Notes: generated by a model not told the origin, from the sequence alone. Positions 2,243 to 38,015 are shown, counted from the first letter of the stretch. The stretch is 39,728 nucleotides of DNA from Chiloscyllium plagiosum (GCF_004010195.1 NC_057718.1:95581929-95621656), one strand, 5' to 3'. Program-made: numbers and translations.

Positions 2243-2949
2243 CTTACACCACAGTTAAAATACAAAAAAAAAGAGTTGGCATAAATTTGACTCTATCAAA
2301 ACTCCAGCTTTTGCAGCAGCAGAGAGTGTGCTGCATCTAGCAGCTTCAACTTCAAAACTCCCAACTTCAACAATTGAAAACAAAATTAAAACCCTCGGTC
2401 TATTTGAGCTTGACTCTACCCACTCATGCTTCTTTTATCTAATTTTAAAAAAAACTATTTACTCTGCTTTCCATGGAGCAGCCACCTCTGCATTACAACG
2501 CCACTCTTAAAGGCTCATCTTGTCACAAAATGCACTTAACACATTCAGAGAGCAAAATAAATGATGATTCAGCTAAGACAGAAGCTAAACTATCAAAAAA
2601 AAACACTTAAATGAAAATATGTGGAATATCTTTTATCATATAAGAGAAATAGGAAAGGACTCTAATATAAAATTAGGTTTCGGGGCTAGTGGAAGTGTGC
2701 AACAGTAATTAGAACGCGAAAACTTTGTACATTCATCATTATAAATTCAATCAGCTGGAACTTCTTGAAGTTTTTTTTAACAGCAAGATTAATAGCATTT
2801 AAGTGGAACTTTTGTTGGCTCACACTCTGTGCAGATTTCAACAGCATATTCTCTGGTAAAGTGCAGAATCATGCTCAGCAATGTTCTGGTTTCTGTATTA
2901 TTCTGGATACACAGGCTCCATAAGTTGCAATCGGTTTTAATGGATTAAT

Positions 2950-3127
2950 GGCAGCAGGTCAGAAAGGGCGGCATCTGAGAAGCAGGAGAATTGACATTTC
3001 GGGTGTGAGCCGTTATGCTCAAAATGTCAACTCTCCAGTGCCTCGGATGCTGCTTGACTTGCTGTGCTTTTCCAGCTCCACACATTTTGACTCTGATTCT
3101 CCATCTTCTGCAGTCCTCACTTTCTCC
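2950..3127. mobile_element. Inverted (tail-outward) pair of Penelope-like element 3' tails, decayed
   Basis: 2950-3010 is the reverse complement of the tail starting at about 3010 (TCGGATGCTGCTTGACTTGCTGTGCTTTTCCAGC...CAGTCCTCACTTTCTCC). Flanks TAATGGCAG (2946-2954) and TAATGACAG (3128-3136) may be a TSD. Confidence 0.7.
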
Positions 3128-4225
3128 TAATGACAGAGGTGCTGACAATTCTCATCATCAAACCACCACAAAATCTGAAAGACATCTTACAGAGCCATAT
3201 ATTCATCTCCTGGAAACAGAATACTGGACACCGAGTAATGTAACCCTGTCTCTTGATCTCTTTCTATCATGGCATGGTCAGGAATAGATTTAATTGAAGT
3301 GGGAATGTCTACAGCGCACAGAGGTTTCAAAACAGTGAAAGGAGAAAAAAAGAAAACTGCAGAAGTATCTTTGCAAAAACAATATTAATCTTGAGCAAAA
3401 AAAGAGAAATAATCAAACTTCTCACTCACAATCCAAACTGTTTGATCCCAATTCTCCTAATATTCCTTTATGGAGAGGCAAAATGAAATGGTGTACATCT
3501 TTATATCATTGGTCACTAAGAGATGGCTTCAGTTTACAGATGCATGAAGTTCTGTGATAATAGTATACACTGACTATCAAATTTTAATGTCCAGCATCTC
3601 ATAGTTATACCCAAGGTCTTTCATGGTTTTTAAAGAGGAGGAAATACAGACCTGACCACTGATCAAGGCAAACTCCAGCACAGCCCTGTGGAACAAACGG
3701 CCTGTGCTGAAATTATCATTTTATCTAATTACAATCAAACCAAGGAATTTAAATCTTGATTCACATGTATATAATTAGGAGGTGGAATGCTCACCCACCA
3801 GTTTGCCAACTCGAATGGACCATTGAGCTACATACCAACTGATGGTTTTGAGCAGAAGAGAGAGAATAAAGTTTAATTTGTGACAACAAGAGCTGGAATC
3901 CTCTCTCTCCCTGCTTCTTCCTCTCATCATCTTGGAGTACAGCACACGGTGAAAAAGCACATTGGAAAAACAACCATTCACCCAAGGATTTAACGATATG
4001 TTTCAGAACTGCTGAGTCAACTATTAAACTACTGTGGTCACAGGGTTGACAAACTGACACCTCAAGGACTCTAAGACCTCTTAACTGTGCACCATTTATT
4101 CCCCTTGTCTGTATCAGGCACACACACACTTTTAAAATTATTGCCAGTGTTTGTGTGGTGTTGCAGTTTTATTATTTTTCCCTTTGTGTTAGAGGTGATA
4201 AAGTTCCTCTTTCTTTCATCCAAAA

Positions 4226-4547: not shown

Positions 4548-5115
4548 ACTGATGACCCTGCCAATTGACTCCTTCATCTCCGTTTAATTAAAATTACATT
4601 TTAATGAAGTATAACAGCTCCATGCTGCAATGAAATAAAAATATATTTGTGACTGACCAAGGTGAGTTGGGGGTAAAAAAAAGAGATGATTTTCTTAGTT
4701 GTAAAACATGTTATATATACACTGGTCAAGCAGAAGTGCTATTTTAGTTTAAAATTGATTTGAGATCCATGTCTTTTATTTATTTGGCAAGTTAGAAATG
4801 CTCTTTGCAGATATCATTTGCAAACATGGCAACTGCATAAATAAAGAAATAAATATTATTCCTGACAATATTTACAGTGTATGTCTCTAATTCTAGTTCT
4901 GCAGTACTTTTAAAATCAGAAAGAGGTTGCACAAAGGGAAACTTAAAAAGTTCAGTGCATGTTTTGAGAGGTGTATTGTGAAAAGAAGACGCACAAACAT
5001 TGAGAGTACAATTTCAATATAAAAGAAGGCACTCCAGCGCATACACATCTTTGGAAAATAAACCAAATTGTTTACAACATTTTAGACGGTTTAGCTTCGC
5101 TTACAAAAGTATTAC

Positions 5116-5256
5116 CTACTGATCCTGGAGAAACTGGCCCCTGGTCCAAGTCTAAAATGTCTTCATCAACAGCATGCTTACTGTTCTTCTCTTTCCTCTT
5201 TTTTGAAACGTTCCCTCGTGGTTTCAACAGGGAAAGTTCCTCCGGCCTACGAATAT
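5116..5256 (-). CDS. FERMT1: Kindlin-1, third coding exon, 141 nt, F1 domain with lysine-rich loop
   Basis: Translates (N)IRRPEELSLLKPRGNVSKKRKEKNSKHAVDEDILDLDQGPVSPGSV, matching kindlin IRRxEELSLLKP and the poly-Lys F1 loop. Acceptor TTTTTAG at 5257-5258; donor G|GTAATA at 5115 keeps phase 1. Confidence 0.93.
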
Positions 5257-5585
5257 CTAAAAACATTTGGAAGTACAATTAACCTTAGTGTAGACAGTTA
5301 AAGCTAGCTCCTATAAAATATCAACACAACGCATTTTCTAAAACTTGAACACGAAGCATCGTCTCCAGACGTATTTCATAGAAACAGGAGGTCTACCAAC
5401 TGTTTGAGGTTTCCCTCTGCAAAATCTTGTCAAGTTTGCTCAGTACTCTCAGGGATTTGGAAGGCTACTCCCCCAGCCCCGCTCAAAATTCACAGGCAAC
5501 TGCCAGAACCCCTCTCAGTAATGTCTCCCCTTCCTTCCTGCACTCTGCTCACCTCAGCTGACACCTTGGCTAATATCTGTGTCAG

Positions 5586-5843
5586 GAGACAGTGAAGCCT
5601 GCAGATGCTGGAGATCAGAGTTGAGAGTGTGTTGCTGGAAAAGCACAGCAGGTCAGGCAGCATCCGAGGAGCAGGAAAATCGATGTTTCGGGCCAGAGCC
5701 CCTCATTCGGTAGGGCTATATTTTAGAAGGACATCTATATTTTAGACTTCCTGATGAAGGGCTCCGCCCCAAAACATCGATTTTCCTGCTCTTCGAATGC
5801 TGCCTGACCTGCTATGCTTTTCCAGCAACACACTCTCAACCTC
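5586..5843. mobile_element. Inverted (tail-outward) pair of Penelope-like element 3' tails with 14-bp TSD
   Basis: 5586-5703 (minus) and 5748-5843 (plus) are reverse complements; flanked by exact direct repeat AATATCTGTGTCAG at 5572-5585 and 5844-5857. Confidence 0.85.
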
Positions 5844-6274
5844 AATATCTGTGTCAGCCTACCTCTGATATTCTAGGGTGGCAAGTTGAACTCTGGGGAC
5901 AGGTATGGTTCTCATACTTCTTCAGTAGTAAATTTCCAAAGTCAATGAGTAAAAGTAAATTTGAACACAACTTTGATAACTTATGTCAAAACAAGATGTT
6001 TGTTTTCAATGATCAAGTACAGTCAGTTCTTCCAGAAGGTGACAGTTGCATTCCTGTGCGATTCCACGCTATACAAAAATTGTGCAATACAAATAACACT
6101 TAAAAGGGTTGGCGATCTAATCACGTTATAGCCAACACACACTTTAAAAGTTCACACTTTAGAAACAGTGTTCCCTATTCACTCAGTCGCGTTACAGCTA
6201 ATTCAGGCTAATGAAAGTAGAACTGACTGTACGTAAATCCTCTCCTGGGGGCCAGCGTTTTGAAAATATACAAT

Positions 6275-9870: not shown

Positions 9871-10991
9871 TGGTGTCAAAAACCCAGTTGTCTGATTTTT
9901 GGATGTCTATGCTGTATCTCCTCTTTGATGGTTGCCTTCAGAGAAAAGGTAGCTGCCGACATATGGGAATATGGATAGTCTTCCCATTAACTCTGCTCAA
10001 AGACCTGTAGCTCCAGGACTGGCCTGCTAAGTTACCAGAGGACAAGAAATGTCCCTAAGTTTGGCAGACAACACTCATGCTTGTTTCAGAGAGATCGGTG
10101 AAGATTTTGTTGGTGATAATGAGACAATATGTAGCCAACATCATTAATTCAATGTGACACATCTTGGATTTGTGCACAATTTTACTACCATCTTGCATTC
10201 TCCATTTCTTCATAACCTTCAGGATCTTTCTGTTATGAAAATCTGGATCTAGAAGGATTGGGGAAACAGACTGCAACCGTACTACAATTAGGACCACGTA
10301 ATAAGAATCTTAAAGCAACATTTCCATCGTCTCGATCGTTTTGGAGTACTTTGCTCTACTCTCCAGCCAAGGTTTCCTGTATTGTCGTTGTCTGTGACAT
10401 TGTTGCCAGCATTTGGTTGTTGCAAAGACATCTAACTACAGGGACAGCCAGTGAAAGAGCTGAAACAGGAGAGAATAATATCAATGCCAGAAAACTCACA
10501 AAGAATCTTGCAGGCATCTGTATGAATATCTATCCATGTCTGATTCAAACCACCTTCCGAGAGAGAGACAGGCAGCATTAACCATTCAATAGAAGCCCGT
10601 TTCCCCACCCACTCATTAATTTGTAGAATAAAAATAATTCTTTCAAACTCTGCCATCAATAAAAAAAGGGTCATATAAACGAAAGTGCTTTCTACAGCAG
10701 TAACATCACTTTTCAGTATTTCAAGTTCTATGCAGATTACACCATCACAAGGCCGTGAAAACACACAGTAAGGATCAAAATAAATGATTAATAGGAATTA
10801 GTGTACACATACATGAACAAATAGTATAGGAGCAGCAAAGACTTAAGCAAGTCGCCAATAGAAGTGAATTTGAAATAACACCCAGCAGAGTTTTTGGATC
10901 CTTTTGACATAAGCTCTTAAGACTATAATGTATGAACTTTCAGCTTTATTTCTTTATTGTGGTTCTGTTCGCTGAGCTGGAAGTTTTTGTT

Positions 10992-11031
10992 GCAAACATT
11001 TCGTCCCCTGTCTAGATGACATCCTCAGTGC
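10992..11031 (-). ncRNA. Minimal hammerhead motif, mirror copy with point changes
   Basis: Minus strand GCA-CTGAGGA-TGTCATCTAGACAGGGGAC-GAAA-TGTT-TGC; a C>T change disrupts the stem III palindrome. Confidence 0.6.
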
Positions 11032-11398
11032 TTGGGAGCCTCCTGTGAAGCGCTTCTGTGGTGTTTCCTCCGGCATTTATAGTGGCCTGTCCCTGCCGCT
11101 TCCGGTTGTCAGTTTCAGCTGTCCGCTGTAGTGGCCGGTATATTGGGTCCAGGGGTCGATGTGTTTGTTGATGGAGTGTGTGGATGAGTGCCATGCTTCT
11201 AGGAATTCCCGGGCTGTTCCCAGGGAATTCCTAGAAGCATGGCACTCATCACAAACTCCATCAACAAACACATCAACCTGGACCCAACATACCGGCCACT
11301 ACAACGGACAGCTGAAACTGACAACCGGAAGCGGCAGGGACAGGCCACTATAAATGCCGGAGGAAACACCACAGAAGCGCTACACAGGAGGCTCCCAA

Positions 11399-11439
11399 GC
11401 ACTGAGGATGTCACCTAAGACAGGGGACGAAACGTTTGC
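11399..11439 (+). ncRNA. Minimal type I hammerhead ribozyme motif, intact core
   Basis: GCA-CTGAGGA-T-GTCACCTAAGACAGGGGAC-GAAA-CGTT-TGC: stem I GCA/TGC, core CUGANGA and GAAA, stem II GTC/GAC plus CCT/AGG, palindromic AACGTT in place of stem III. Predicted cut after GUU at 11436. Confidence 0.75.
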
Positions 11440-11489
11440 AACAAAAACTTACAGCTCGGCGAACAGAACCACAACAACAGAAAAGAGTG

Positions 11490-13519: not shown

Positions 13520-13700
13520 CGGCAGGGACAGGCCACTATAAATGCCGGAGGAAACACTACAGAAGCGCTTCACAGGAGGCTCCCAAGCACTGAGGATGTC
13601 ACCTAGACAGGGGACGAAACGTTTGCAACAAAAACTTCCAGCTCGGCGAACAGAACCACAGCAACGAGCACCCGAGCTACAAATCTTCTCACAAACTTTA
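13520..13700 (+). mobile_element. Solo 3' end of the same Penelope-like family as 10957-11474
   Basis: Nearly identical to 11332-11474 and extends about 40 nt further (GCAACGAGCACCCGAGCTACAAATCTTCTCACAAACTT). Confidence 0.88.
13587..13626 (+). ncRNA. Minimal type I hammerhead ribozyme motif, intact core
   Basis: GCA-CTGAGGA-T-GTCACCTAGACAGGGGAC-GAAA-CGTT-TGC, same fold as 11399-11439. Confidence 0.75.
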
Positions 13701-19750: not shown

Positions 19751-20004
19751 ATAACATTTTAAAAAACGCACACAGCAGTTTCCCTTGCTCACTTTCAAAC
19801 TACAGCGGGAACAGGCTGAGAAATTGTATCACAGCTCAAGCAACTCTACATTTCTTCCCTCATGAAAATAATGGGGCATTCAGAGAGAGTACACACCATT
19901 ATGGTGTATATTCTCTCAGAATGTCCCATTATCTTCATGAGAGGAAAAAACATATATCCTGTCACAGCTTTAGACATCCCTCAGTGACATTTCTCAACCA
20001 CTCC

Positions 20005-20775: not shown

Positions 20776-21791
20776 TAACAAGAATGGGAGGAATAAATTT
20801 AATTTATTTCCCCTGAAACAGAGGAAGTTCCCTGAGAAAATGTAATGGAGGGTCGTGAACACATCTTAGATGGGAAAAAGCTTTGTTTTTGTTTGGGAAG
20901 TGAGTTAAGTTTGTGCAAACTCAACTGCAGTGGCCAGTGAGAAACATTGGGAGAGAATGCAACAAGGAGAGTGCAGTCAAAACCAAAGGGACATTGGATG
21001 GAAATAATGGTGGCGACAATACAATACATGCACGCTGCAAAACAGCACAAAAGTATGAACCCTGACAGCTTGCACATTCAAATGCAATATGCATCCTAAA
21101 TGGTTCCTGAATTACTTCACTGCATTCCCTGGAATTGAACTTGGGAAATGGACCACCAGATATTTGTCAGACATTCTGAAGTACTAATCAGGTTATTTCA
21201 AGAAAGGTCCAATTGCATTTTTCTGCTGAAAATATGATCTGCCCACAGAAGACAATCCTTGAGAGGACAGGAAGTACAAATCATTAGGAACGATGGTCAC
21301 GCTGTGCTCAATAAGGTTTTGCTAAGCCATTTTTCTATGAACTTTGAACAGATTTTCTGTAGAAGAAATCACTTGTGCAGCAGATTACTCATAAATGTAT
21401 TTCCTTTTGGTGCTGATATTCTGTAATCTATGAAGAGTAAAGCATTTATTGAACTGGAGGGCATTGAAAATTAGCAGAACTGAAGATTGATTTATTGAAT
21501 AATCCATGCAAAGCACAGATTTTTGGAAGAGCATCAATCTTCTATTTGTATGTAAATTAATCACAGCGTAGATGCAATCAGCCAATGATTCATCTAAAGA
21601 ACAACAATTTCCTATATACAAAATAAAGATTATTGCTGCCAATACAATTACAGAACAAAGGAGTTCAAATGTATGTCATTTCCAGTGTAACAGATCACAA
21701 ACTTGAGTATATTCGCTAAATACATTCATGAAAACAGCTTGTTGAAAATAACAGTCAGCACATCTACAGCAGTTGACAAAAGGTCTGTGAA

Positions 21792-22602
21792 GAGAAAGTG
21801 AGGACGACAGATTCTCGAGATCAGAGTCGAGAATGTGGTGCTGGAAAAGCACAGCACGTCAGGCAGCATCCGAGGAGCAGGAGAGTCGTCATTTCGGTTA
21901 TAAGCCTTCATCAGAAATGTGTGTGGGGTGGGGGACAAGGATGGGAAGGGGCTGAGAGATAATTGGGGGAGTGGGGCTGGGGGGAAGGTAGCTAGGAAGG
22001 CGATAAGCAGATGCAGGGGTGCGGTGATGGTGATAGGTCAGAGTGGAGGGTGGAGCGGATAGGTGGAAAGGAAGATAGACAGGGAGGATAGTTCAAGAGG
22101 GTGGTGCCAACTTGGAGGGGAGATAAGGAAACTGGTGAAATTGACATTGATGCTGTGTGGTTGGAAGGTCCCAATATTCCTGCTGTAAGTATGATGCTAT
22201 TTTAGAAGATACTAATAAATCTATTTATGTCGGTAAAAAACGACACGGTGGCACAGTGGTTAGCACTGCTGTCTCACAGCGCCACAGAGCCGGGTTCAAT
22301 TCCCGCCTCAGGCAACTGTCTGTGTGGAGTTTGCACATTCTCCCAGTATCTGTGTGGGTTTCCTCCGGGTGCTCCGGTTTCCTCCCACAGTCCAAAAATG
22401 TGCAGGTTAATTGGTGAATTGGCCATGCTAAATTGCCCGTAGTGTTAGGTGAAGGGGTAAATGTAGGGGAACGGGTCTGGGTGGGTTGCTCTTCAGAGGG
22501 CCGGTGTGGACTTGTTGGGCTGAAGTGCCTGTTCCCACACTAAGTATTCTAATCAAGATGGAAGATGAGGTGTTCTTCCTCCTTGCATCAGGTGGCTAGG
22601 TC
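21792..22602 (-). mobile_element. Penelope-like element (Neptune-type) 3' fragment, interrupted at about 22175-22553
   Basis: Minus strand encodes KEEEHLIFHL | GTFQPHSINVNFTSF (GIY-YIG C-terminal region) across the insertion, then a pyrimidine-rich 3'UTR, a decayed hammerhead (21888-21914) and the tail. Confidence 0.8.
22241..22553 (+). mobile_element. tRNA-derived V-SINE (HE1-like) nested in a PLE
   Basis: A box TGGCACAGTGG, B box GGTTCAATTCC, V-domain and tail. Confidence 0.92.
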
Positions 22603-22708
22603 TGGTAAGACTTTTCTTTAAACTTGGTGAAAAGCTATAAGTTCCAGAAATAGCTAAACAAAAGACTGCAAGTTCAGAGCACCTTGCAGAATAACCCAAC
22701 ATCCTTCC

Positions 22709-22846
22709 ACCACACCAATTCTGATGAAGGACTTATGCCCGAAATGATGATTCTCCTGCTCCTCGGATGCTACCTGACCGACTGTGCTTTTCCAGCACTA
22801 CACGTTTCGACTCAGACTCTCCAGAATCTGTTGTCCTCACTTTCTC
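22709..22846 (+). mobile_element. Penelope-like element tail, inverted duplicate of 21792-21925, decayed hammerhead at 22721-22748
   Basis: CTGATGAAGGACTTATGCCCGAAATGAT...TTTTCCAGCAC...CCTCACTTTCTC. Confidence 0.85.
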
Positions 22847-24409
22847 TTCGCAGACCTTTTGTCAACTGTTGCAGATGTGCTGACTGTCATTTTCAACAAA
22901 CTGTTTTCATGAATGTATTTAGCGAATATATTCAAGTTTGTGATCTGTTACACTGGAAATGACATACGTTTCAACTCCTTGGTTCTGAAACTGAATTGAC
23001 AGCAATAATCTTTATTTTGTATATAGGAAATTGTTGTTCTTTAGACGAATCATTGGCTGATTGCATCTACGCTGTGATTAATTTACATACCAATAGAAGA
23101 TTGATGCTCTTCCAAAAATCTGTGCTTTGCATGGATTATTCAATAAATCAGTCTTCAGTTCTGCAAATTTTCAATGCCCTTCCATCCAGTAAATGCTTTA
23201 CTCTTCATAGATTACAGAATATCAGCATCAAAAGGAAATGCATTTACGAGCAACCTGCTGCACAAGTGATTTCTTCTACAGAAAACCTGTTCAAAGTTCA
23301 TAGAAAAATGACTTAGGAAAACCTTATTGAGCACAATGTGTTTGTTGTTCTCAATGACTCATACTTCCCGTCCTCTGCGGGGCTGTCTTCTGTGGGCAGA
23401 TCATATTTTCAGCAGAAAAATGCAAGTGGACCTTTCTTGCAATAGCCTGACTCATACTTCGGAAGTTTTGATAATTATCTGGTGGTCCATTTCCCAAGTT
23501 CAATTCCAGGGAATGTGGTGAAGTAATTCCGGAACCATTTAGGATGGATATTGCATTTGAATGTGTTAGCTGTTAGGGTTTGGACTTTGTGCTGTTTTGC
23601 AGCGTGCATGTATTGTATTGTCGTCACCATTATTTCCATCCAATGTCCCTTTGGTTTTGACTGCATTCTCCTTGTTGCATTCCCTCCCAATGTTTCTCAC
23701 TGGCCACTGCAGTTGAGTTTGCACAAACGTAACTCACTCCCCAACCCTTCCAGAGAATCACGACCCAAAGATGTGGCCCCGATCCTCTGGATGTTTTACA
23801 TCACTCCACCCTCAGCTTCGCAAAAACATGAGCTTGTGTCAAACTGTCCATGGACATCACCAAAATATAGGACTTACGCTGTAAATATGAGCAAATCCCT
23901 CCACAGATATTTAGGGCCACTGGTGACCATTTTGTTGATATGATATGTGGCTGCAGCAACTCTTGAAGTAACTTGAAGATACGGAGAAAGGAAACAACTG
24001 GAGGTATAGAGATCATCCCACAGAATAAATGGGTGAACAATTTTTTGTTACTTTTCATTTCTTTCATTCTGAACACAATCACTCTTTTCACAATTTCACA
24101 TTTGTTATTGAACGCAACTGTAATTAAACTATTTCCTTCTCAGTCACCCCATCTATGTCTTCATCCATCTTTAAGTCTCATTGTTTAAGGAGACATCGGA
24201 CCTAAACTTCACATACTCTCAGACTATCCACAGCCCTCTCTGCGTGAGCTGTAACTTGAAGTGAAAAAAAACCTAAAATGGCCCGAAGGGGGAGGCAAAA
24301 GAAAAATGCAATTCATGGTGCTCGACGCAAGATACCACACTTCAATAGTTCCTACACCATTAAACTTTAGTTATGGGATTTACAGTAGTAGGTAAAATTA
24401 TCGACTTAC

Positions 24410-24643
24410 TCAGAGTTTTGCAGATATCAATAACTGCCCTGAAGACCACAGATGAGAAACTAACTTTTAACCTCACTGTCTTCATATTGGGTAGCTGCAA
24501 TTTTAATGATTTATGTTGTGGAGTGTACAACAATTTAGCGTCAGCCTGGATTCCATATTTGTCCAGAGTCCAATGTGTCTTCAGAAGCCAGCATTTTTTC
24601 TTCGCCCACCAAAGAGCATGGTCTGACCAGTCCTGAGGTACTG
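24410..24643 (-). CDS. FERMT1: Kindlin-1, second coding exon, 234 nt, end of F0 and start of F1
   Basis: Translates (P)[77 protein letters not shown], a hallmark kindlin segment. Acceptor TTTTATTTCTGTTACAG, donor A|GTAAGT at 24409; phase 1 on both sides, in frame with neighbouring exons. Confidence 0.97.
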
Positions 24644-25125
24644 CTGTAACAGAAATAAAATATCCTGTCAACATACGAAGTGACGTCAAACTCCAGCCTT
24701 CTCAAAAATATGAACAGACAGTTGAGTATTTCACACGTCAAGATCTCTATAATCAGGCATAACTGCCATCCTAGATTGTAACGCAGAAGGGGGCAGATCT
24801 GGATTTCGTGAGACTGTTAAATAGATGATAGCAAATGAATACAAGATGGCCATGCACACTGATTTCCTCCATGCAGAAATTGAGAGCAGACCCATAGAAA
24901 CCCAGAGCCATTGTTTAGCTGTACTTCAGAATGGCACAGAATTAGGAGTTGCATAGCAACCACTGAGGAGATATAATGTTGAATAATTCTATTTCTATTT
25001 TGGCCACAATCTTTAACTTGAAAGACTCATTATCTGCTAAAACTCTATGGCTAGCAACCTTCCCTTTCAACATTCCAAAATGACTACATTCACAACTACA
25101 CCAAGTCACCTTTAGCAATGGCACC

Positions 25126-31037: not shown

Positions 31038-32098
31038 ATTTAGTAGTATTGAAATTTACAAGTTCAACCTGACCATTATCCGTCACCTTGATTTTAGATA
31101 GTTGAAATTGTTCCTTCCAATGATAGTAGCCTCTACAATGCAAAGTGAGTTGCGGTCTGAATTCCATGCTGTCAAGCGCTTTTGCATTTCATGGTTGCAC
31201 TCAACTAAGAATTCAAAAGCAGCCCTCTACTCTTCCTGATCTAAATATTTCCCCTTAGAGACATCATGTGTAGACATTGTTTCAAAAATACATGCTGACA
31301 GCACTCAGCTCTATTTTCCCTTTATAACATAACCCTGTGTTGTTAAATTGCTTGCCTGGTTTTTAGTCGTGAATAAGCCACCAACTGTTCGATTTAAATG
31401 TTGGAATGGCCAAAACTATCTTCTTTGGTCTCTGCTACTTAGACTTGCATCCTCACCACTAATTTCATTCCCTCCCAGCCATTACTGCAAATTGATTCAC
31501 AGACTCAATGTCACATTGTCATGGACCAGATCATACATCCTCAAAATATTTTAGTAGCCTAGATCCTAATTTTTTTCTTATTTCAAAGTGTCTGTTCCAG
31601 ATGCAATGTGACTAGTCAAATTACTCAGTGTTAAGCAAAACACAATTTATTTAAGTATAGTAGTTAAAATAAAATCAAAGCAAGAGGAATTTAGGATAAT
31701 TTTACTCTACAGCTTCACCCTAAGCTATGCATCTGACTCCACACATTTGGTTGCCAACACTCCTATTTTGAGTTTCATGGTGGCTCATTAGCACTGCTGC
31801 CTCACAGCGCCAGGGACCCAGATTCGATTCCAGCCTCAGGCGACTATCTGCATGGAATTTGCACATTCTCCCCTTGTCTGCGTGGATTTCCTCCGATTTC
31901 CTCCCACAATCCAAAGATATACATGTCAGGTGAATTTGGCCATGCTCAGGGTTCAGGGGTGTATAGATTAGGTGCATTAGTCAGTAGAGTAGTAGGGGAA
32001 TGGGGAGAAAGTGAGGACTGCAGATGGTGGAGATCAGAGCTGAAAATGTGTTGCTGGAAAAGCGCAGCAGGTCAGGCAGCATCCAGGGAACAGGAGAA

Positions 32099-32130
32099 TC
32101 GACGTTTCGGGCATAAGCCCTTCTTCAGGA
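32099..32130 (-). ncRNA. Minimal hammerhead ribozyme motif, intact core, sense to FERMT1 pre-mRNA
   Basis: Minus strand TC-CTGAAGA-A-GGGC-TTAT-GCCC-GAAA-CGTC-GA: core, 4-bp stem II, ACGT palindrome, GUC cleavage triplet; stem I only about 2 bp. Confidence 0.65.
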
Positions 32131-32173
32131 ATGAGGAAAGTTTGTCCAGCAGGCTAAGATAAAAGGTAGGGAG

Positions 32174-32378
32174 NNNNNNNNNNNNNNNNNNNNNNNNNNN
32201 NNNNNNNNNNNNNNNNNNNNNNNNNNNNNNNNNNNNNNNNNNNNNNNNNNNNNNNNNNNNNNNNNNNNNNNNNNNNNNNNNNNNNNNNNNNNNNNNNNNN
32301 NNNNNNNNNNNNNNNNNNNNNNNNNNNNNNNNNNNNNNNNNNNNNNNNNNNNNNNNNNNNNNNNNNNNNNNNNNNNNN
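32174..32378. other. Assembly gap (205 N)
   Basis: Run of N inside a PLE copy. Confidence 1.
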
Positions 32379-33214
32379 CAGGTGAATCTGTGGCGGATAT
32401 GGAAGTTTCCTTTTGGGCCTTGGAGGGAGGTGAGGGGGGAGGTGTGGGCGCAAGTCTTGCACCTCCTGCGGTTGCAGGGGAAGGTGCCGGGAGTGGAGGT
32501 TGGGTTGGTGGGGGGGGGTGTGGATCTGACGAGGGAGTCACGGAGGGATTAGTCTTTACGGAATGCTGATTGGGGAGGGGAGGGAAATATATCCTTGGTG
32601 GTGGGGTCCGTTTGGAGGTGGAATGGGTCTGTGTGGGTTACTCTTCGGAGGGTTAGTGTGGACTTGTTGGGCCGAAAGGCCTGTTTCCACACTGTAGGAA
32701 TTCTAACATCAGCTAGCCTTGTCCTTGCAATGGCCTGTTTGCTTTCGTCAACTCCAGACTCGACTATTCTTAAATGCTCTCGGTCAGCCTCTCATCCTTC
32801 ATCCTCTTTAAGTTTAGCTCTATTGCCTGCATACTATCTTGCAACAAACCCCAATCAACCCATCATCCCTGTACATTGAACATCTTGCATTTAACCCATC
32901 CATGGTTTTGCTGTTTCCTATTTCTTCCCAGCCCTCCATTACCAATAGAACAGTTTCCCTTACTCTTTTTTTCTCCATGACTTCAGCCCTCCCCATCACA
33001 GCCTTCAGAGAGGTAAAGTGAAAACTGATCAGGTAACAATGTTCTGCAGATACATATTTAACCTGATAATGTAGGTTTGTGACATTAAAGGGGAGGGAAA
33101 AGGTGCAGTTCTTTGCATTTACTTGACATTTTCAAAATTTAACTGTTGTATTCACTAAGATAAATGCTAATGGTGGAATTGAATTCTTAAATATTTCTCT
33201 TTTAAATTTGGAGA

Positions 33215-36329: not shown

Positions 36330-38015
36330 TTCTTGTGAACTATTGGGCATTAAATTAACAGAGGACATGATTGGAATGAACTTTTCTCCACAAGCATGCA
36401 CACACACAAACAAAAGAAGAATAGAGGAGCTAAATATTATTTAAAAATAGAGGAAGACTGAAGAAAACTACAAAACAGAGTGGTTTTGGAACCCTCATCC
36501 ATGAATCACCTAAGCCAGCATCCCAGTCCAATGCATAATCGGGAAGGCAAATGAAACGTTGGCCTTTATTTGAAAACAAATGGAAGATAAAAGTAGAGAG
36601 GTTTTGCTAAAACTATATACGGCACTGGTCAAGCCATTGTAGGAATACCGTGAACAGTTTCAGTTTCTTGTCTAATGAAAGATATCCTGGTAGTAGAGCA
36701 AGTCCAGCCAAGGTCCACCAGGCTGACAACAGGAATGGAGTTATTATCTTATGAGAAGAGGTTGAGTAGATTGGGCTTGTACTCATTGGAATTTAGAAGA
36801 ATGAGAGGCGACATGTAGAATCATAGAACCCCTATAGTGTGGAAGCAGGCCATTCGGCCCACTGAGTCCATGCTGCCCCCCCCCCCCCCTCTGAGGAGCA
36901 TCCTACCCAAACCCACCTCTCTACCCTGTCCCTGTAACCCTTCATTTTCCATGGCCAGCCTGCACATTCCTCGACACTATGGGCAATTTAGCATCGCCAA
37001 TCTACTTAAACTGCACATCTTTGGACTCCATTCCAACTCCAAATCCTCAACTCTTCTGCCTTTTCCCCCCCATAACCTTGATTCCCTTCTTGATTAAAAA
37101 TCCATCTCAAGTCGTGAATCTGCTCAATAGCCCTTTGCGGTAAAGAATTTCACAAATTCACTCCGTTCTGTGCGAAGAAATTCCACCTCATGTCTGGATT
37201 AAATGTGCGACCCATTATTCGGAAATTACGCCATAGGTCCAAGACGGTCCCTCAAGAGGAAACCATTTCTTTGCATCTACCCTCTCAAATCCCCCAGGGA
37301 CCGTGTTATGGTTCAAAGACTTATTGAAACACACAGGATTCTTCAGGGAGTTGACAGGGTAGATGCTGAAAGGTTGTTTCCCCTTGTGAGAACATCGAGG
37401 ACCAGAGGACAGAATCTCAGAGTAAGGGGTCACCTTCATGAGATAGAGATAAGAAGGAATTTATGATGAATCTGTGGAATTCTTTACTGCAGAGGGCTTT
37501 TGACATGCTCAAGGCTGAGACAGAGATTTTTTGGATTAGATTCGATTCTCTACAGTATGGAAACAGGCTCTTCGGCCCAACAAGTTCACACCGACCCTCC
37601 AAAGAATAACCCACCCAGACCCATTCCCCTACCCTAGATTTTACCCCTGACTGATGTACTCAACACTATGGGCAATTTAGCATGGCCAATTCACCTAACT
37701 GCACATCTTTGGATTGTGGGAGGAAACCGGAGCACCCGGAGGAAACCCACACAGACACGGGGAGAATGTGCAAACTCCACATAGACAGTCGCCTGAGGCG
37801 GGAATCAAACCCGGGTCCCTGGTGCTGTGAGGTAGCAGCGCTTACCACTGAGCCACAGTGCCACCCCGGCACTTTAATAGGTAAGGGAAACAAGGGTCAT
37901 GATGGAAAAGGCATGGAAATGAGGTTGAGGATGATCCAATCAATCACGGGCTCAGTGAATAATGGAGCAGACTTGATGGGCTGAATGGCCTACTTCTGCT
38001 CCCATGGTTTATGGT
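36330..38015 (+). mobile_element. Decayed CR1 LINE 3' region with nested inserts: partial V-SINE 36816-37028 (-), inverted CR1 piece about 37030-37300 (-), V-SINE 37535-37867 (-)
   Basis: CR1 remnants such as LIETHRILQGVDRVDAERLFPLVRTSRTRGQNLRVRG (ORF 37203..37466) and tail AATGGAGCAGACTTGATGGGCTGAATGGCCTACTTCTGCTCC. Confidence 0.8.
37535..37867 (-). mobile_element. tRNA-derived V-SINE (HE1-like), near full length
   Basis: Reverse complement of A/B boxes, V-domain and (AATCT)n-type tail. Confidence 0.92.

Follow-up and report, generated by a model that had tools for sequence, protein, structure and literature searches.

How has a kilobase of host DNA come to lie twice, in opposite orientations, within one intron of a shark gene? 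The locus that raises this question lies in a 39,728-nt stretch of the Chiloscyllium plagiosum genome (GCF_004010195.1, NC_057718.1:95581929-95621656), which as a whole is called the window here and carries a kindlin gene on the minus strand (Pfam PF18124) with a first coding exon closest to FERMT1 (E = 1.5e-12; FERMT2 gives 1.6e-7). The two arms of the repeat, 20893-21926 and 22710-23744, are reverse complements of one another with 90.8% identity over 1,037 columns and five gap openings in a self-comparison of the window, and they enclose a spacer of 783 nt (21927-22709). The inverted repeat is a real and old duplication of a known, small kind, present in two copies that are local, inverted, low in copy number and decaying. 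The order and mechanism of the duplication we infer from the sequence, and on balance a template switch during replication or repair is the likelier source of what is now a fixed, old and small inverted duplication.

Structure of the repeat and its host intron

The repeat occupies the minus-strand intron between coding exons 24410-24643 and about 5112-5257, with its outer end 665 nt into the intron as measured from the donor of exon 24410-24643 (splice sites), and the FERMT1 exons on both sides of it are intact. The initial annotation, drawn from the bare sequence, had described arms of about 1.03 kb around a spacer of about 780 bp, some 670 bp from the exon, in an intron of FERMT1, with tail and flank joined at the same nucleotide in each arm; the alignment, the Pfam domain and the first coding exon bear out each of these points. 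The joined pieces are the end module of a Penelope-like element and a host part of about 900 nt, and the junction between them falls on the identical nucleotide in both arms.

20893..21793, no strand: left arm, host part, ~900 nt, putative original (alignment; low copy in three organisms)
22611..22694, no strand: spacer piece of 84 nt, probably original host DNA as judged from direct repeat 1 (no window match elsewhere)
22845..23744, no strand: right arm host part, inverted, putative derived copy (alignment, arm-type contigs)
24410..24643, minus strand: FERMT1 coding exon upstream of the repeat-bearing intron (Pfam, splice sites)

Between the arms, 75 of 896 columns of the host part are mismatched (8.4%), mostly by transitions, as are 16 of 127 in the end module (12.6%). 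The host part has two matches in the window and no third. Mismatches between the arms are clustered (P below 0.0002), and gene conversion between the arms was not detected, the longest identical run being as long as chance predicts (P = 0.32).

No coding homologue of the host part was found: none of the six frames exceeded the Pfam cut-off, the best PDB match was the SPOP BTB domain at E = 0.63, a search of 1.84 billion proteins returned 0 matches, and the best Atlas value, 0.76, lay under the noise level. One right-arm frame contains only 4 stops in 299 codons (P about 0.001), and other regions of the window are equally low. On the plus strand, a frame running from the right arm into the flank (22840-23898) has 4 stops in 353 codons and no homologue. 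A coding origin of the host part was considered and rejected, with arm differences distributed 19/27/29 over the three codon positions and no third-position excess.

Copy number, age and decay in relatives

Four public runs, from organisms designated A, B and C, were aligned to 22556-25100, a segment with the right arm only, at 85% likeness. Contig depth over the host part and the flank was 19-41 and 17-22 in organism A, 10-22 and 8-15 in B, and 44-99 and 12-37 in C, that is, about 1-3 times the flank for the host part, while depth over the element end ran to millions, about a hundred-thousand-fold above; these are summed contig depths and not copy numbers. Both arm types and both outer junctions were recovered in independent runs, with the host part low-copy in all three organisms, and no single contig covers the whole unit. 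Among the 40 variants listed (out of 216), 39 lie in the arm, and 37 of these 39 carry the letter of the window's left arm. In organism C, the segment 23210-23662 was covered by two 453-nt contigs equal in depth, one differing from the window's right arm at 26 positions and the other at 47; between the two arms of the window itself, 49 positions differ there. In organism B, a left-type contig fits up to 23744, beyond which 293 nt of it do not resemble the right flank; a right-type contig runs on into that flank. Organism A differs at 4 of 1,402 nt; it may belong to the species of the window and does not count as independent support. Because independent contigs carry both arm types and the host part is low-copy, the repeat is neither a mis-join nor a dispersed transposon, and the proposal that one tail-plus-flank unit was copied locally holds. 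The initial annotation had taken the divergence between the arms as an argument against an artefact; that divergence does not suffice, and the exclusion comes from the independent contigs instead.

Orthologous divergence is 2.7% to organism B and 4.5-5.7% to organism C, and arm-to-arm divergence, at 8.4-10.8%, exceeds both; by this measure the duplication has about twice the age of the split from C. Absolute dating was discarded, as the pedigree rate of 7e-10 per generation (PMC10587355) gave ~6e7 generations, which we judged implausibly old, and only relative ages are used here.

Organism B also records decay of the repeat. In one contig (depth 10), 22881-23211 is preceded by 49 nt of the opposite strand, with a strand-switch joint at 22881/23163 and 3-nt microhomology, which reads as a ~1.4-kb deletion of both end modules and the spacer, from 21475 on the left to 22881 on the right. 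A second contig lacks 23485-23701, a 217-nt arm deletion, and if both deletions lie on one chromosome, 365 nt of paired arm are left; organism B may be heterozygous for them. Each deletion is represented by one contig, and another contig that links the end module to 22898 has a short side of 22 nt and is unreliable. Outside the repeat, a 22-nt stretch at 24830 is present in B and C and missing from the window, pointing to a deletion on the window's lineage.

The left element and the copied end module

The left Penelope-like element (21794-22597, minus strand) extends beyond the arm, which corrects the initial annotation, and is split by a short interspersed nuclear element (SINE), which we take to be of the HE1/V-SINE family, and 68 unassigned nt. 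It retains only the C-terminal end of a shark protein, P0005, that matches RVT_1 (reverse transcriptase) and GIY-YIG: 22113-22175 is 71% identical to residues 435-455 of P0005 (E = 6e-5), and 22555-22587 encodes EEEHLIFHL, which in P0005 lies directly upstream of that piece and is weak when taken alone (E = 0.48).

21794..21926, minus strand: Penelope-like end module (pseudo-long terminal repeat, degenerate minimal hammerhead core), left arm (window comparison)
21927..22175, minus strand: element body, last GIY-YIG codons and 3' region (protein match to P0005)
22176..22243, no strand: 68 nt interrupting the element alongside the SINE (no window match at E below 0.07)
22244..22554, plus strand: multi-copy SINE within the element body (72-87% identical to at least seven other window copies)
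22555..22597, minus strand: element body resumed, 5' truncation near 22597 (protein piece, high-copy depth in this bin)
22710..22844, plus strand: copied end module, starting 11 nt upstream of the hammerhead core at 22721 (window comparison)

Minimal hammerheads have been described in fish elements (PMC4209133). Sister copies of the shark family show intact core boxes and a visible stem II, which are damaged in the two arms; the second core box of the left arm reads GAAAT then GA, where the family has GAAAC-(G/A/C)TC. Rfam did not recognize a hammerhead; what it returned were generic hairpin matches that stayed under the gathering scores.

The modules of the two arms share 9 letters in 126 columns that differ from the majority of five other window copies; four are exclusive to them, one of which lies inside the target repeat, and five recur in another copy. 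Private non-majority letters number 6 and 8 in the two modules. Their distance, compared with a view to whether the right module predates the copying, is the smallest among 21 window pairs overall (16/127), though not in every segment. The shared letters suggest some decay before copying, though they could also stem from a subfamily. The claim that the two tails share changes found nowhere else thus stands in part: the motifs quoted for it do hold exclusive letters, but not all of the shared changes are unique.

Junctions and direct repeats

Two imperfect direct repeats abut the left element and the right arm, and further short matches lie next to the outer ends.

21781..21793, plus strand: direct repeat 1, left copy, candidate target-site duplication, abutting the 3' end of the left element (11/13 identical to the right copy)
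22598..22610, plus strand: direct repeat 1, right copy, abutting the other end of the left element
22695..22709, plus strand: left copy of direct repeat 2, immediately before the right arm (13 matches, 2-nt gap)
23740..23752, plus strand: direct repeat 2, right copy, whose first 5 nt are the last 5 nt of the arm (microhomology)
20850..20867, no strand: left flank words whose reverse complements recur in swapped order past the right arm (exact 9 nt, 20850-20858, and 8 nt, 20860-20867)
23758..23775, no strand: two short words, templated or chance, matching DNA past the left arm (word match)

Direct repeat 1 (13 nt, 11 matches) has P = 0.010-0.029, and direct repeat 2 has P = 0.008 against random window pairs and 0.079 against shuffles. 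Read jointly, the two repeats point to the left arm as source, to 22611-22694 as host DNA and to the right arm as an insert. A 7-nt microhomology lies near the inner junction (22700-22706 with 21937-21943), and the words in the flanks beyond the arms, which were spotted post hoc, have P = 0.003-0.006. At the outer ends of the whole unit no direct repeat was detected (score 3, P above 0.96), against a score of 14 for the positive control at 5572/5844. Nor is there a poly(A) at the 3' end of the copy, the nearest AATAAA lying 85 nt past the source breakpoint.

Three other head-to-head element pairs occur in the window (about 2950-3127, 5586-5843 and 10949-11483), and none of them duplicates host flank. 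The initial annotation had seen the same geometry in these pairs and in the FERMT1 repeat. This likeness does not hold, as the clearest of the three has one target duplication around the pair, and the FERMT1 unit has none outside and two inner repeats.

Origin of the duplication

A DNA-level duplication and a 3' transduction by the element, the two origins initially put forward, are still the best two, and we rank the DNA-level event first. It would have begun with a 5'-truncated Penelope-like element inserting, in minus-strand orientation, at the border of host part and spacer, as direct repeat 1 suggests. After some decay, a strand at 22709 would have switched to the opposite-sense template near 21926, copied its way back over 1,035 nt of element end and host part, and rejoined the first template via the 5-nt microhomology 15 nt before its point of departure, duplicating 15 nt (a "4 before 1" switch); in a variant of this course, a short inverted element copy already present at 22710 would have seeded the switch. 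The subsequent course is visible in the alignments, with the arms diverging independently and deletions eroding them in one relative.

A template switch is favored because the outer ends lack a direct repeat and the two inner repeats stand in nested register, because size and distance match the commonest class of human inversion sites, because microhomology at the junction and templated words are signatures of replication events, and because the copy ends without poly(A). Inverted duplications made up 54% of 229 sequenced human inversion sites; almost all of them measured less than 1 kb and lay no more than 5 kb from their counterpart, and they were not typically retrotransposed (PMC4617611). 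Switches of the "4 before 1" type, in which return precedes the departure point, yield a direct repeat beside the inverted copy (PMC7954356), and microhomology and short templated inserts have been shown to mark replication-based junctions (PMC5120786, PMC11293582). Because the copy landed 112 nt from its parent, a replication fork would also be preferred over a diffusing RNA-protein complex.

Several observations weigh against a template switch as reconstructed here. The longest hominid short-range switch in PMC7954356 is 128 nt. No one-armed relative was found among organisms A, B and C, and the polarity is thus deduced rather than observed. Both direct repeats were first spotted by eye, so that their modest P values (0.008-0.08) are generous, and of five other mobile-element insertions tested alike, three (32004, 25126, 10949), and likewise the SINE, gave no detectable repeat. 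The inner breakpoint, 11 nt upstream of the hammerhead core, falls near the starts of short copies of the family (5748, about 25126), and direct repeat 2 has the length of the family's target duplications (14 nt at 5572/5844). Outside both arms and in register, in the region that holds the two words, 16 of 20 nt are identical (P = 0.006-0.013); the copy may on this evidence once have been ~50 nt longer, in which case direct repeat 2 would be due to chance. In a 390-nt test, however, no outer-flank similarity stood out, with 48 of 200 shuffles matching it.

The foremost alternative, which we regard as possible but clearly less probable, is that Penelope-like enzymes supplied in trans carried out a local 3' transduction. 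The RNA of the end module, or the nascent FERMT1 pre-mRNA, would extend 900 nt into the flank, and copying would start internally at an A/C-rich site and end at the module's natural 5' boundary, with the product entering a cut that the element's endonuclease had made, staggered by 13-15 nt, at a distance of 112 nt from the parent. Such a course would account for the copy's 5' end, which falls on the boundary usual in the family, and for direct repeat 2, which brackets exactly the copied unit and has a family-like length. It would likewise suit the position of the left element (21794-22597, minus strand), directly upstream of the copied flank and in the same sense as the FERMT1 pre-mRNA. At the outer breakpoint, A and C make up 80% of the source 30-mer, a value reached by 0.6% of downstream 30-mers, with the caveat that this window was picked post hoc and that the copy itself is 67% A+C. 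A purified Penelope-like protein initiates reverse transcription internally, at a site rich in A and C and with no template homology (PMC11167929), and Penelope has an internal promoter (PMC2377424) and mobilizes host DNA in trans (PMC3846280). Yet both hammerhead cores were already damaged alike, the templated words fall outside direct repeat 2, small local inverted duplications are common in genomes without Penelope-like elements, and no poly(A) follows a polyadenylation signal, a criterion that may not apply to internally starting Penelope-like elements. Reinsertion 112 nt from the source would moreover require a cis-acting step of which we found no description in the literature. That a Penelope-like reverse transcriptase acted in cis on nascent RNA, copying a dead module and downstream host DNA into an adjacent cut, we hold to be rather doubtful, about one chance in several; directed literature searches, which left most subscription journals outside, found no description of cis-acting copying of flank beside its source.

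Two further explanations concern polarity and the reality of the unit. That the right arm is the original, or that the unit was ~50 nt longer with its ends later overwritten, would fit the 16 of 20 identities equidistant outside both arms and the low-stop frame spanning the right arm into the right flank. We consider this improbable, as the element body and direct repeat 1 sit on the left side, the outer similarity is lost in the 390-nt test and the frame has no homologue. A non-autonomous DNA transposon whose terminal inverted repeats measure 1 kb, or else a mis-join in the assembly, is suggested by the long inverted arms and by two assembly gaps elsewhere in the window, but is largely refuted, and next to nothing speaks for it once the depth of the host part (about 1-3 times the flank, with the element end about a hundred-thousand-fold deeper), the missing outer target duplication and the recovery of both arm types and both outer junctions in independent runs are taken into account. 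Taken by itself, the locus is a well-preserved fossil, in which insertion, inverted copying and the collapse of the hairpin center in one relative can be read from the junctions. Wider relevance would follow only from an element-driven origin, for which the locus sets a signature that can be counted genome-wide. If cis-copying were true, retroelements would have a route to kilobase inverted repeats of unique host DNA within genes, and a module-dense genome would have a steady supply of long intronic duplexes and deletion-prone sites.

A role of the stem in RNA

The repeat should be able to fold in the FERMT1 pre-mRNA, most likely without a selected function. That the stem has been retained as an editing substrate, a source of small RNAs or a modulator of splicing appears very unlikely to us. 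The predicted minus-strand fold has 968 inter-arm pairs and 14 uninterrupted helices of at least 19 bp, the longest of 96 bp, both arms persist in organisms A and C, and the mismatches are clustered (P below 0.0002). Against retention, transitions on the transcribed strand gave 27 G-U versus 35 A-C pairs (P = 0.37), the longest identical run is at chance expectation (P = 0.32), and the right arm has diverged from its C orthologue no more slowly than the flank (5.7% and 4.5%). Organism B has the 1.4-kb central and the 217-nt arm deletions, and nine further inverted matches of at least 80 nt occur in the same intron. The idea of a double-stranded RNA stem serving ADAR or yielding small interfering RNAs is permitted by folding but unsupported, with a negative wobble test and decaying arms in B. 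ADAR edits long duplexes in general, and incidental editing of the stem in the pre-mRNA is plausible. A single-cell RNA run, of which 2 in 100 was read, placed no read on either the host part or the exon and is uninformative. In the literature searched, nothing specific came up on hammerheads, Penelope annotation or intronic editing in sharks, nor on the loss of the center of inverted repeats by deletion.

Other elements in the window

Beyond the repeat, the window holds further inverted structures. The pair of head-to-head end modules at 5572-5857 is flanked by a perfect target duplication of 14 nt and has an unassigned center of 38 nt, one arm lacking the last ~40 nt; its center (5586-5843 pair) and 22176-22243 have an 11-nt word in common (E = 0.92), probably by chance. 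An older head-to-head pair of end modules at 2946-3140 has a partial direct repeat at its ends. A second Penelope-like family, which has a hammerhead-like core of its own, forms a near-perfect palindrome of 540 nt (93%) at 10949-11483, the strongest spacer-free hairpin of the intron, and a third piece of that family (13520-13700) is 95-97% identical. An element copy at 32004-32620 lies inside a SINE and spans an assembly gap; its part 32381-32620 codes for the cysteine-rich linker that lies upstream of GIY-YIG, with 65-71% identity to shark proteins. An isolated 82-nt near-perfect palindrome without repeat assignment (19861-19942) and an old inverted match of LINE-like (long interspersed nuclear element) sequence, 66% over about 400 nt (37124-37503), were also found.

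Comparison with known systems

In 3' transduction of the LINE-1 type, the end of an element and the host DNA downstream of it are copied together. The shark copy is alike in its candidate target duplication and differs in lacking poly(A) and in lying beside its source. Closer in kind are the head-to-head insertions of endonuclease-bearing Penelope-like elements (PMC3846280, PMC8557442), which have the same outward ends, an inverted 5'-truncated copy near the 5' end and a possible capture of host DNA. The shark arms, in contrast, hold 900 nt of 3' host flank (900 of 1,035 nt being low-copy host DNA), with 84 nt of host DNA between the heads and no target duplication round the whole unit; because of the missing outer duplication and the host DNA inside the arms, a canonical single-event head-to-head insertion fails as an explanation. 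How Penelope-like elements build inverted structures is itself stated to be an open question (PMC8557442).

Among DNA-level systems, fold-back duplications with terminal deletion (Hermetz et al. 2014, PMC3907307) likewise have inverted copies round a single-copy spacer, whereas the shark locus has no terminal loss. Four-point "4 before 1" switches (Walker et al. 2021, PMC7954356) and fork stalling and template switching/microhomology-mediated break-induced replication (FoSTeS/MMBIR; PMC5120786, PMC11293582) have in common with it an inverted nearby copy, a direct repeat on return, microhomology and templated words. The seeded variant would parallel cases in these papers in which the first switch occurs at an inverted repeat and the second at microhomology. 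The shark copy is eight times the longest short-range switch (PMC7954356) and far below the size of clinical DUP-TRP/INV-DUP events. The "Inverted Dup" class of 1000 Genomes phase 3 (Sudmant et al. 2015, PMC4617611) likewise has ~1 kb copied and inverted within 5 kb, with replication error suspected. Compared with that class, the shark repeat is fixed and old rather than polymorphic, lies at the upper size edge with its 1,035 nt, and has one breakpoint at a retroelement boundary.

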